This document shows, one piece after another, positions 60,636-63,519 of a stretch of DNA of 64,000 bases; the stretch's first letter is position 1; every line of letters begins with the position of its first letter. A program made the translations under genes and the position numbers. This stretch comes from Myxococcota bacterium (GTDB lineage: Bacteria; Myxococcota; XYA12-FULL-58-9; JALHOP01). Under the pieces are notes generated by a model. The model had not been told where the DNA came from. It was given only the letters and a program-made list of their open reading frames with translations, and did not search any database. The stretch is from positions 861 through 64,860 of the forward strand of contig JBGGMJ010000182.1 of NCBI GenBank assembly GCA_041288095.1, written 5' to 3'.

Positions 60636-62408
60636 TCAGGCTTTGGGGTTGGTGTTGGTCGTCAACAGCCCCTGAATGAAGGGGTAGTGATAGATCTGCA
60701 TATCGCGCGGCTTGGAGATGGTCTTCAGGCGCTCCTCGACCATCTTCACCAGCTCGTCGCGCTGCTGCTTGGTGCAGCAGTCGAAGTGCGGTCCGAGCTT
60801 GATGAACTGGAGCTCGAAGGCCTCCTGCAGCGGCGAGAACGAGAAGAACATGCGACGGCCGTACTCGGACGCGCCGGCTAGGAACTCGGCGGCTTTCTCG
60901 AGGTCGCCGTCCTTGATCGCTGCTTCGGCGTCGACCACGACCTCGTGCAGGAAGCGCTGATGCCAGATGAAGGCATAACGTCCGCCGAGGATGCGGCCGT
61001 CGACGGTCCAATGGCGCAGCAGGTTGTCGAGGACCTCGCGTTCGACCGACGGGCCCATGGTGACCTTCTCGAGTCCGCCATAGCCGAAGGCGCGCGCGAT
61101 ATTGCCGAAGCGATCCTGGAAGAACGAGCCGGCGGTGCCCATGGCGATGCCGACGAGATTGAACACCACCGCGTCGAGGCCGATCATCCACTGCGGGCCG
61201 ACGGCCTTTTCGAGGTAGAGCTTGCCGATACCCGAGGCGGCGCCGACGCCCGCGAAAGCGCCGAACGAGATGCCGGTGATCTTGTTCTCGATGCGGCGGC
61301 TGACGTCGGCGTTGAGTTGATCCTGGACGACGCGCCACAGCTCTTCCATCGTCAACGGCTTGCCGCCGTTCTCTTTCATCTTCTCGTGCACGATGGCGAG
61401 CACGTGTTTGGTGACGCGGCGTAGCTGGCGTAGGAGCTTGAAGCGCTGGAAGGGGTTCTTGCCCTTCATGAGCTTCTCGAAGTGCTCCTCGAGCGCCTTC
61501 TTGATCTCCTCGTCGGAGCCCTCGTCATTGGCGGCTTGCACGAGCCCGGCGCGACCGTCGAGCGAGATGGTGGCCATCTCACCGGGGGCCTGCAGCATCA
61601 GCGGGTGGTGCAGCTGCTTTTGCGGACTGCGCGTCGTCAGGCCGGTGACGATGGCCTCGACATACTCCGACAGACCTTTGCGCTTGCCGTTCGAGAGGCG
61701 CTCTGCTTCGTCGCGTACCGCTTTGCGGAAGCTCGCGAGCTCGGCCTCGGGCAGCTTGTGAAAGTACGGGTAGAGCTCCATGTAGATGCGCCCGTACGTG
61801 CGCAAGCTCAGCGGTGACTGCTCAATCCAGATGTGATGGTCGTGATAGAGGCAGCCCGCGAGGCGGCGAGCCGCGCCGTTGAGATCTCCAGCCGCGATGG
61901 AAGAGCGCACGCCGGCACACGTCACCTGGAGCATGCCGCGGTAGAGCTCGAGGTTGTCCGACATGCCGCTGACGCGGCCGTTGAGCTTGTTGCGCTGGTT
62001 GCTGACCTCGAACATCGAGGCCAAGGCTTCCGGGTAGATGACCTTCGCCTGGTTCGCGCCCGCGACCGCGGAATTCGCCGGATCGCCGGGACCCGTCGCC
62101 GCGCGGAAGACCCACGAGCGCAGCGGGTTGGTCATGTTTTCTTGGAAGCGTGCGCCAGCGGCTTGGGCCGTACCGGTCGCGGTGTTGATGACGGGCTCGA
62201 AGCCACGCGCCGCGGTCTTCGGGCCCTGGTTCAAGAGCCAGCTCGCGAACGCACCGGCGCCGGTCGCCGCGAAGTAAATGCCCGCGGAGATCCAGTTCGC
62301 TTTGCGCGCTGCCTCCTTCTTCTTCTCCTCCTCCGTTGGCGGAGGTTTCGGAGGGTCGGGTGGGGCAGGCGGCTGGGCGACGAGGCGCCCGTTGCCGCTA
62401 ACCTGCAT
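60636..62408 (-). CDS. orphan protein with two copies of a Gly-rich hydrophobic + helical module (590 aa)
   Basis: It contains an internal duplication related to the upstream 373-aa ORF. All three copies end in a PxF-K...L..F/L.K.V.E motif (LYPYFHKLPEAELASFRKAVRDEAERL; LGPHFDCCTKQQRDELVKMVEERL). Confidence 0.55.
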   Translation of the reverse strand: MQVSGNGRLVAQPPAPPDPPKPPPTEEEKKKEAARKANWISAGIYFAATGAGAFASWLLNQGPKTAARGFEPVINTATGTAQAAGARFQENMTNPLRSWVFRAATGPGDPANSAVAGANQAKVIYPEALASMFEVSNQRNKLNGRVSGMSDNLELYRGMLQVTCAGVRSSIAAGDLNGAARRLAGCLYHDHHIWIEQSPLSLRTYGRIYMELYPYFHKLPEAELASFRKAVRDEAERLSNGKRKGLSEYVEAIVTGLTTRSPQKQLHHPLMLQAPGEMATISLDGRAGLVQAANDEGSDEEIKKALEEHFEKLMKGKNPFQRFKLLRQLRRVTKHVLAIVHEKMKENGGKPLTMEELWRVVQDQLNADVSRRIENKITGISFGAFAGVGAASGIGKLYLEKAVGPQWMIGLDAVVFNLVGIAMGTAGSFFQDRFGNIARAFGYGGLEKVTMGPSVEREVLDNLLRHWTVDGRILGGRYAFIWHQRFLHEVVVDAEAAIKDGDLEKAAEFLAGASEYGRRMFFSFSPLQEAFELQFIKLGPHFDCCTKQQRDELVKMVEERLKTISKPRDMQIYHYPFIQGLLTTNTNPKA

Positions 62409-63519
62409 GGCTCACCTTCTCGACCACGAGGACCGCCGGCTTCTCGGCCGGTTGTTCGACGTCCGAGTTAGCGGACGGCTTCTTCGGGTTCAAGATGCGG
62501 TCGAGGAACGGGTCGTAGTAGTCTTTGATAGCGGCCGCGGTGTCGGGGCGGCCTTCGCTCGCCACGTTTTTGCGCTCGCGCTGCACCTCTTCGACGACGG
62601 CCTTGCGGAAGGCCGCGAGGTCCTCGGGGCTCGTGCCCTTGAAGTGAGGCGACACGACCAGGGAGAGGTTCGCGAACAGCTCGAGGTTGTGCGGGTCGAA
62701 GTTGAACCAGTAGAGCTCGGTGTTGATGAGCCGCCGAGCCATGAACATCGCGGCGTAGTCGATCGCTTCTTTCTTGGCTTCTGGGCTCTGCGCTTTTCGC
62801 GCTTCGGCGAGCTGCTCACCGACTTCGCGGAAGGTAGGCGCGAGGTGAATCTCGAAGATGGTGAGCGCGAAGCGTCCGCCATTGAAGCGGCCGTCGGCGG
62901 TGTTCTCCACCATGTTGGCGAAGATCATTTCGTCTTTGACCGCGTTGACGTCCTGCGACTGAACCGGCGCGCCCTTGAAGCCGACGCGATTGATCCAGGC
63001 GCGGATCGGCGAGCTGATCTTGTCGTTGAACAAGCCGGTGCAGGCGCCGACGAGCGCTCCGCCGACGGTGTAGAACACCGGGTTCCAAGCGGCTTGGATG
63101 GCGGTCGCGACGCCTTCGGTAAATGCCGCCTTGAGAGCGAAGTTGATGCCGTAGTTGATGCCGGCGAAGCCCAAGAGGGCGCCAAAGAAGATGCCGCCCG
63201 AGACCCACCAGGCGCGCCGGTCGGTCTTCTTCGACTCCAGCTTGAACTTGGCTTTGTCGACCGCGCGCTCGGCGACTCGGAGGTCGAGGCTGTCGCCGTG
63301 CATGGCCACGAGGCGGCGCATTTCGGGCTCGACCTCGCGGGTGAGCCTCTGCACGTCCGCGTTGGCGAGCAGGCCCGCGTTGGGCAGTTGACCGCGCCGC
63401 TTGAGCACGTCCCGCGTGAACATCGCGACGTCGTCGGTGAAGGCACCTTTGTCAAAAGAGACAAAACCCGACGTCAAACCCGGGAGCGCCGGGCCCTTCA
63501 GATCAACTGATTGTGGCAT
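62398..63519 (-). CDS. orphan protein with one copy of the same module (373 aa)
   Basis: WWVSGGIFFGALLGFAGINYG...DGRFNGGRFALTIF...VVSPHFKGTSPEDLAAFRKAVVEEVQRE. It overlaps the downstream paralogue by 11 nt. Confidence 0.55.
   Translation of the reverse strand: MPQSVDLKGPALPGLTSGFVSFDKGAFTDDVAMFTRDVLKRRGQLPNAGLLANADVQRLTREVEPEMRRLVAMHGDSLDLRVAERAVDKAKFKLESKKTDRRAWWVSGGIFFGALLGFAGINYGINFALKAAFTEGVATAIQAAWNPVFYTVGGALVGACTGLFNDKISSPIRAWINRVGFKGAPVQSQDVNAVKDEMIFANMVENTADGRFNGGRFALTIFEIHLAPTFREVGEQLAEARKAQSPEAKKEAIDYAAMFMARRLINTELYWFNFDPHNLELFANLSLVVSPHFKGTSPEDLAAFRKAVVEEVQRERKNVASEGRPDTAAAIKDYYDPFLDRILNPKKPSANSDVEQPAEKPAVLVVEKVSHAG

Follow-up and report, generated by a model that had tools for sequence, protein, structure and literature searches.

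In a 64,000-nucleotide stretch of Myxococcota DNA (contig JBGGMJ010000182.1, positions 861 to 64,860; hereafter the window), two overlapping minus-strand genes, here called A and B, define a new orphan protein family with a clear history of duplication and fusion and a conserved overlapping-gene arrangement. A module of ~230 aa occurs once in A and twice in B. We consider it likely that A and B are genuine helical proteins, paralogous and produced together, the charge-free, small-residue-zipper hairpins of which are built for tight packing and, very probably, for residence in a bilayer. More tentatively, we infer that A and B together make up a two-component complex that would be exported, insert into membranes and possibly form pores. 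The features of the pair, in window coordinates, are as follows (L and P numbers in the text denote the loci and proteins compared).

62398..63519, minus strand: gene A, 373 aa, from the open reading frame (ORF) list; helical N-terminal region at aa 1-95, single module at aa ~95-345, short tail ending in HAG.
63025..63213, minus strand: predicted apolar helical hairpin of A, aa ~103-165, with helix 1 AWWVSGGIFFGALLGFAGINYGI and helix 2 PVFYTVGGALVGACTGLF.
62398..62408, minus strand: overlap of the A stop and B start, ATGCAGGTTAG, 11 nt, from the junction sequences.
60636..62408, minus strand: gene B, 590 aa, from the ORF list; Pro-rich, charged N-terminus, then module 1, linker and module 2.
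61623..62324, minus strand: B module 1, aa 29-262, delimited by BLASTP and hhalign matches to A, the module alignment and hydropathy.
61308..61622, minus strand: B inter-module linker, aa 263-367; the second hhalign match starts at A 56 / B 329.
60639..61307, minus strand: B module 2, aa 368-590, delimited by BLASTP and hhalign.

The initial annotation, made from the DNA letters, had proposed one module copy in the 373-aa ORF and two in the 590-aa ORF, and the alignments agree with it. BLASTP matched A 95-314 to B 29-237 (E = 3e-14) and A 109-346 to B 379-589 (E = 2e-7). Comparison of the A and B family profiles in hhalign paired A 99-315 with B 33-238 (97.4% probability, E 1.3e-11) and A 56-344 with B 329-583 (97.2%, E 4.4e-11); since the second alignment spans A 56 to A 344, the second half of B resembles nearly all of A. 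Smith-Waterman scores of the three module pairs against 300 shuffles reached z = 23, 13.4 and 11.7, and z = 9-12 was retained after the Gly-rich part had been deleted, so the similarity is more than one of composition. The motifs RR...G-I-F-G-A, F-(N/Q)-(D/E), P-x-R-(A/S)-(W/F), (D/N)-G-R-x-x-G, A-x-x-L-A-G, (S/D)-P, P-x-F, F-R-K-x-V and Y-x-x-P-F stand in register in a 17-sequence module alignment, as do those quoted earlier (DGRxxGG, AxxLAG, P(H/Y)F, FRKAV). A hidden Markov model (HMM) of the module matches gene B twice, at aa 29-262 and 366-588. The N-terminal region 56-98 of A, which aligns with the final ~45 residues of the B linker, and its C-terminal tail (YYDPFL) also find counterparts in the second half of B. 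Judged from these alignments, B joins a truncated A-like module through a linker to a full A-like unit.

At the junction the bases C ATG CAG GTT AG are read twice, with A ending ...CAT GCA GGT TAG (...H-A-G-stop) and B beginning ATG CAG GTT AGC (M-Q-V-S); the 11-nt overlap annotated earlier is thus confirmed at 62398-62408, and a Shine-Dalgarno-like GAGAAGG stretch lies immediately upstream of it. The conserved C-terminal 'AHAG' of A-type proteins was considered as a sorting motif and rejected, because it is overlapped by the B start codon and dual coding explains it. The ratio of nonsynonymous to synonymous substitution rates (dN/dS) is 0.11-0.14 for gene A (against L001 and L007) and 0.09-0.11 for gene B (close relatives), and these values, together with protein conservation down to 15-30% identity, establish the minus-strand A and B frames as real.

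The arrangement of a one-module gene with a two-module gene directly behind it is seen in five diverged lineages, whose proteins share 25-35% identity. Besides the window-type orthologous pairs (L001-L009, L011-L013), these are the pairs at L010 (309 + 607 aa, a second, diverged locus in the metagenome-assembled genome (MAG) that also holds L001), L014 (404 + 587 aa), L017/L018 (355 + 580 aa) and L019. The identical 11-nt overlap is found in the window type, L010, L014 and L017, and L019 has a 92-nt gap instead. That order and overlap are kept at ~25% identity argues for translational coupling of A and B and for their production at fixed stoichiometry; conservation of the pair in turn suggests that the two proteins form a hetero-complex.

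This is a very rare family. Among 5.8 billion proteins, word-index searches returned eight relatives of A (49-99% identity) and five of B (66-100%), none of them named, and a further such search with a 23-sequence alignment added one protein. Among 1.84 billion cluster representatives the module HMM found 32 proteins, 31 of them true after removal of P0041 (1781 aa), which was rejected as a false positive caused by low-complexity repeats. An orthologue is present in three MAGs among 185,579 species genomes, two labelled Myxococcota and one 'uncultured Bdellovibrionales'; the three are GCA_022842935.1, GCA_964484195.1 and the JBDHVB01 assembly. The MAG of the closest genomic orthologue (L011, CAZAER010000026.1) bears the 'Bdellovibrionales' title; its sibling MAGs carry the title Myxococcota, and for the protein P0012 the name given is 'Myxococcota bacterium'. 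The 'Bdellovibrionales' title is probably an inconsistency of taxonomic labelling.

The view that A and B belong to no described family was upheld throughout. For A, B and the downstream gene C (see below), Pfam and NCBIfam scans gave no family match, the PADLOC anti-phage defence models gave 0 matches, and the sole PHROGs match, at 0.036, is at chance level. PDB chain sequences gave chance-level matches only (phmmer of B; 39-sequence profile), tblastn of B against 72,556 plasmids found none, and the fold searches of PDB and BFVD described below were likewise empty. The module and family alignments contain no invariant His, Cys, Ser or Asp hinting at catalysis.

Signal peptides had been reported as lacking, which holds for A and B; the distant single-module homologues P0034 and P0042, however, possess N-terminal signal peptides, as well as two conserved Cys pairs, and are therefore exported. 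P0034 is encoded at L016 10001-11152 (MAG GCA_041740975.1, 46% G+C), adjoining resistance-nodulation-division (RND) efflux genes, and the single-module relatives P0034, P0036, P0038 and P0042 are solitary. By these predicted N-termini, the family includes both exported and signal-less members, and at least part of it therefore works outside the cytoplasm.

To the A sequence, AlphaFold2 (39-sequence alignment) assigned an all-alpha structure with a mean predicted local distance difference test (pLDDT) of 86.9 and a predicted template modelling score (pTM) of 0.70. Two long helices, 80-132 (53 residues) and 135-180 (46 residues), form a hairpin in the model, and the eight other helices have 15-33 residues. 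The apolar segments A103-L129 (helix 1) and V148-F164 (helix 2) lie on the distal part of this hairpin, with a tip of ~20 residues between them and K/R-rich collars (KKTDRR... and ...NDKISSPIRAWINR) on either side. Across 39 module sequences, hairpin columns 104-121 and 148-162 are essentially charge-free, a stripe of small residues at columns 107/109/113/117/119/124 is 64-97% Gly/Ala/Ser (column 107 being 97% small), and G154-x-x-x-G158 is ~80% Gly. The glycine-zipper character ascribed to the module is thereby borne out. The hydrophobic stretch described for each module does contain a Gly-rich apolar segment, but it is a two-helix hairpin rather than a single stretch; every module has one, with the second helix of B module 1 turned polar.

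The hairpins differ in polarity. That of A combines one clearly and one moderately apolar helix (Kyte-Doolittle 19-residue maxima of 1.58 and 1.18), and that of B module 2, ITGISFGAFAGVGAASGIG ... WMIGLDAVVFNLVGIAMGTAGSFF, followed by the helical domain, has two moderately apolar helices (1.36 and 1.70). B module 1 pairs a weakly apolar helix (NWISAGIYFAATGAGAFASW) with a polar, Thr/Ala/Gly/Gln-rich one (EPVINTATGTAQAAGARF), and the distant B-type proteins P0014, P0018 and P0022 do likewise. On a simplified Hessa scale every segment of the family sums to above 0, with A-type helix 1 at +0.5 to +2.8 and B-type segments mostly above +3.5; barely any B-type segment falls below +4 kcal/mol (none in P0014). 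This scale omits position and length terms, and we therefore read these sums as 'marginal' hydrophobicity. In a separate observation, the A-type proteins P0026, P0027 and P0031 (e.g. L014 2134-3348) have an extra Gly/Ala-rich apolar hairpin in an N-terminal extension; the module HMM matches it weakly and in part, a hint that duplication can affect the hairpin by itself.

The AlphaFold model of B is poor (pLDDT 57, 11 sequences), with low confidence at aa 262-299. In Foldseek, none of 350,542 PDB chains matched the A model at E <= 0.001 (best E 0.2, template modelling (TM) score <= 0.25), and nothing below E 0.2 (TM <= 0.25) was found for the A model against BFVD or the B model against PDB, the best E values across these searches being 0.2-0.35. 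Matches to 14-3-3, spliceosome and designed proteins were taken as noise, given TM <= 0.25. Since Foldseek is weak for elongated all-alpha folds and for proteins with alternative conformations, and the comparison is with PDB and BFVD, we provisionally regard the predicted A fold as new.

On the reading that we tentatively favour, A and B would join into a hetero-complex with three homologous modules, each consisting of a compact helical domain and of two long helices that carry a charge-free, small-residue-zipper hairpin at their distal ends. The hairpins would be the working part, packing through their Gly/Ala/Ser faces and entering the lipid bilayer, while the helical domains would remain on one side of it as a cap. 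Graded hairpin hydrophobicity (A most apolar, B module 2 intermediate, B module 1 mixed) could divide the modules between anchoring or spanning the membrane and lining a polar channel. The pair would be made in soluble form and then act on a target membrane, using a new fold unrelated to the ClyA family; marginal hydrophobicity of all segments is as expected if the proteins must first stay soluble. We favour this reading because of that marginal hydrophobicity, especially in B, and because a simple two-pass topology fails for B module 1. It is also prompted by the distant relatives that are exported, the rare and patchy occurrence of the family, the presence of two paralogous pairs (L001 and L010) in one MAG and the parallel with ClyA-family toxins. 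Gene contexts outside the orthologues vary.

ClyA-family toxins consist of two or three homologous helical components, the heads of which sit at the ends of long helices and are graded in hydrophobicity (PMC6602965, PMC5935710, PMC6086661). Within AhlABC, the component that attaches to the membrane is AhlC; AhlB crosses the bilayer by means of apolar stretches on two 140-Å helices, and the amphipathic/hydrophilic AhlA is proposed to line the pore (PMC6602965). A and B resemble this family (YaxAB/XaxAB, AhlABC, SmhABC, Nhe, Hbl, Mak) in being homologous all-alpha components encoded side by side. In the A model, as in these toxins, a mid-chain apolar segment lies at the tip of a long helical hairpin (helices 80-132 and 135-180, charge-free at 104-129 and 148-165), and the hairpin heads differ in hydrophobicity between the components. 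Some ClyA-family members have signal peptides and others do not, as here. Unlike in that family, two of the three A/B 'components' are fused in one chain, the hairpin has a glycine/small-residue zipper, and the rest of the module consists of compact 15-33-residue helices rather than the elongated five-helix tail of ClyA. The host is an environmental Myxococcota lineage and not a pathogen. There is no sequence match to HlyE, Bacillus_HBL/Nhe, XaxA/B, YaxA/B, Ahl, Smh or Mak (Pfam E <= 1; PDB phmmer and profile), nor is any ClyA-like chain among the 50 best PDB Foldseek matches listed for the A model. With neither sequence nor fold placing A and B in the family, the resemblance to ClyA is one of logic only.

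Colicin-type pore domains and Bcl-2-like proteins are soluble all-alpha structures with an uncharged helical hairpin able to enter a membrane; the A/B modules likewise carry an uncharged hairpin, in predicted all-alpha proteins. A and B have no Pfam or PDB match to either group. In colicins the hairpin is C-terminal, short and buried in a 10-helix globule, whereas in A and B it is at the N-terminal end of the module, on helices of ~50 residues. Nor does a membrane immunity gene, as would be expected for a colicin, lie beside A/B, where the downstream genes are variable and C lacks a hydrophobic segment.

The earlier suggestion of a membrane-inserting or pore-forming protein would suit the anatomy, with apolar tips on long helices, three homologous modules of graded hydrophobicity and exported distant relatives; a secretion system, an immunity gene and a known toxin fold were not found. 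Several observations weigh against the complex that we propose. No secretion-system, chaperone, immunity or mobile-element gene lies beside any locus examined. No match to a pore-forming toxin, translocator or colicin was obtained by sequence or fold (Pfam, PDB sequences, PDB/BFVD Foldseek), and the protruding hairpin in A is deduced from helix lengths in the model only. At the orthologous locus the position between argG and rplL does not vary and selection is purifying, which is more suggestive of a resident cellular function, and the K/R-rich hairpin flanks would equally suit an ordinary N-in/C-in hairpin of the inner membrane.

These last points lead to an alternative that is itself doubtful and nearly as likely as the one we favour, namely a resident inner-membrane complex. 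Here the hairpins would sit N-in/C-in in the producer's own cytoplasmic membrane with the helical domains in the cytoplasm, forming a lineage-specific scaffold or membrane-organising assembly. Both flanks of the hairpin are K/R-rich and its loop is short and charge-poor, which fits the positive-inside rule, and A and B have no signal peptide. The argG-rplL synteny is held between genomes whose A proteins are down to ~50% identity, dN/dS is ~0.1, and immunity or secretion genes were not found nearby. The weak, non-significant PDB profile matches fall on small membrane proteins (7qhm_J, SecE).

Packing analogies for such a complex would be glycine-rich hairpin oligomers such as Mic10 and the ATP-synthase c-ring. 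In glycine-zipper hairpins (Glycine zipper 2TM/SlyB-type, Mic10, ATP-synthase subunit c), GxxxG/small-xxx-small stripes drive tight oligomeric packing in the membrane, and A and B share the two adjacent helices with conserved small-xxx-small stripes (39 sequences). They differ in that the hairpin is joined to a ~150-aa helical domain and occurs in three copies per gene pair; moreover, Glycine zipper 2TM (SlyB/Rick_17kDa_Anti) has no Pfam match to A or B at E <= 1, and neither protein has an N-terminal lipobox. Residence in the inner membrane sits poorly with B module 1, which offers one weakly apolar helix and a polar partner. A simple two-pass arrangement fails for this module, and a one-pass arrangement would place homologous domains on opposite sides of the membrane. 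Orientation would be reversed in the distant homologues that bear signal peptides and Cys pairs, all segments are positive in the summed Hessa scale, with B-types such as P0014 having none below +4, and for a housekeeping membrane component the family is very rare and patchy.

A second, improbable alternative is that A and B are soluble helical bundles with no membrane role, in which the hairpins would serve as a buried core or as an oligomerisation interface holding A and B, or higher oligomers, together in the cytoplasm. Marginal hydrophobicity would suit this, small-residue stripes are classic surfaces for tight helix-helix packing, and the eight further helices of each A chain could wrap the hairpin; conserved catalytic residues and membrane-related neighbours were not seen. 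However, at 53 and 46 residues the hairpin helices of the model far exceed the 15-33 residues of the others, so the tip could hardly be buried in a monomer. In addition, ~18-24 consecutive residues of each helix are essentially charge-free across the 39 sequences, which is the length of a bilayer span, and charged K/R collars stand beside the apolar stretch.

We give still less credence to A and B being substrates of a contact-dependent secretion system encoded elsewhere, either as translocators of the type III secretion system (T3SS) kind or as a membrane-targeting effector pair of a type VI secretion system (T6SS), with LPxLP as a chaperone or adaptor site; this idea overlaps with the membrane-inserting complex. 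T3SS translocator pairs (IpaB/IpaC, SipB/SipC, YopB/YopD, PopB/PopD) are encoded by adjacent genes, are of sizes similar to A and B, and are helical with a hydrophobic hairpin and no Sec signal. The 373/590-aa sizes and hydrophobic hairpins recall IpaC/IpaB in particular, and A and B also lack a Sec signal. A-type proteins share an N-terminal motif 'h-LP-x-(L/I)-P' that falls in a lower-confidence part of the A model. Yet the motif persists directly after the signal peptide of the Sec-exported P0034, which argues for a structural rather than a targeting role. Pfam gives no match to translocator or effector families (IpaB_EvcA, SseC, YopD and IpaC_SipC among them), and A is homologous to B, whereas translocator partners are not detectably so. 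None of the loci examined has a class II tetratricopeptide-repeat (TPR) chaperone, T3SS, T6SS, VgrG, PAAR or immunity gene.

Finally, that A and B are spurious ORFs in GC-rich DNA is refuted: at the ~65% G+C of the window long antisense ORFs are frequent, and the 410-aa ORF at 62278-63510 (plus strand) opposite A and the 309-aa ORF at 60409-61338 (minus strand) overlapping B are best explained as by-products of this composition, but dN/dS is ~0.1 in the A, B and C frames, motifs are conserved in homologues down to 15-30% identity, and the AlphaFold model of A is confident.

Two further features adjoin the pair.

59957..60574, minus strand: gene C, 205 aa from the ATG at 60574, 61 nt downstream of B.
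63529..63586, minus strand: conserved non-coding blocks upstream of A, GTTATCGG at 63579-63586, CGTTTTCACGAAATCTTT at 63547-63564 and ACCGAAAC at 63529-63536.

The order of genes at the orthologous locus is argG, a 263-aa DUF4347-like gene, a divergent 532-aa alpha/beta-hydrolase (BAAT_C-like), A, B and rplL-rplJ-rplA. The ~532-aa hydrolase, transcribed divergently from A (window 63625-64000, plus strand, running off the window end; L007 7187-8785, minus strand), has a BAAT_C match at 8e-6, a GESRGG nucleophile elbow and a long N-terminal extension. Wherever an orthologous locus reaches far enough, both this gene and the DUF4347-like gene keep synteny with A-B, and neither is near the diverged pairs. 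Because the diverged pairs lie in unrelated gene contexts, the argG/rplL neighbourhood reflects synteny among relatives and not function.

The three upstream blocks occupy the intergenic region between A and the hydrolase and are invariant across five aligned orthologous loci, despite A itself being only ~50% identical. All 12 orthologous loci contain a 16-mer taken from them, which the paralogous and distant loci lack; within the window it is found a single time. From this distribution the blocks are probably a locus-specific regulatory site. A scan upstream of A detected no sigma-70 promoter.

Gene C is listed as a 217-aa ORF starting at a GTG, and the ATG at 60574 gives 205 aa. Its dN/dS of 0.10 against L007 marks it as a real gene under purifying selection. 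The initial annotation had considered it a possible partner of the pair, a role that we reject, along with that of an immunity protein, as C is not conserved with the pair and is without a hydrophobic segment. It is confined to the window lineage and L007-L009 and is absent from L013, L003, L010, L014 and L017; its slot holds an opposite-strand HicB-like antitoxin gene in L001 and is empty in L013. The genes downstream of other A+B pairs are unrelated to C, which is thus a lineage-specific accessory gene outside the conserved unit. The 435-aa gene after the L010 pair was likewise rejected as a fourth family member, since the HMM finds nothing in it.

Elsewhere in the window, the ribosomal-protein cluster (54809-59784) is broken up. 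The run rplA-rplJ-rplL (58047-59784, plus strand) is followed by the convergent C-B-A, with no rpoB-sized ORF in the 4.2 kb that the window still covers beyond rplL, and is preceded by an extracytoplasmic-function (ECF) sigma factor (56302-56958), a FecR-like protein and a thrombospondin-type-3-repeat protein (54809-56188). The C-terminus of the latter (GGCAS...hydrophobic...RTRRG) resembles a MYXO-CTERM-type sorting tail.

Even with no function assigned, A and B are of use as a very rare orphan family (~30 clusters in 1.84 billion) with a confidently predicted fold that has no structural neighbour, an internal duplication history and conserved overlapping genes, and the family is a good target for curation. 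The source phylum, Myxococcota, is known for killing other microbes. It is an unlikely prospect that A and B are the first example of a novel structural class of alpha-helical pore formers with several hairpins, with no relationship to the ClyA, colicin and translocator folds, in which a heterodimer would contribute three glycine-zipper hairpins, graded in polarity, to a ring-shaped pore that uncultured, possibly predatory Myxococcota use against other cells. Were the pair to permeabilise membranes, it would represent an independent structural solution among the few alpha-helical pore-forming architectures, with two of its three components fused. If the membrane-inserting complex that we tentatively favour is correct, A and B would be a new structural variant among multi-component alpha-helical membrane-inserting proteins.

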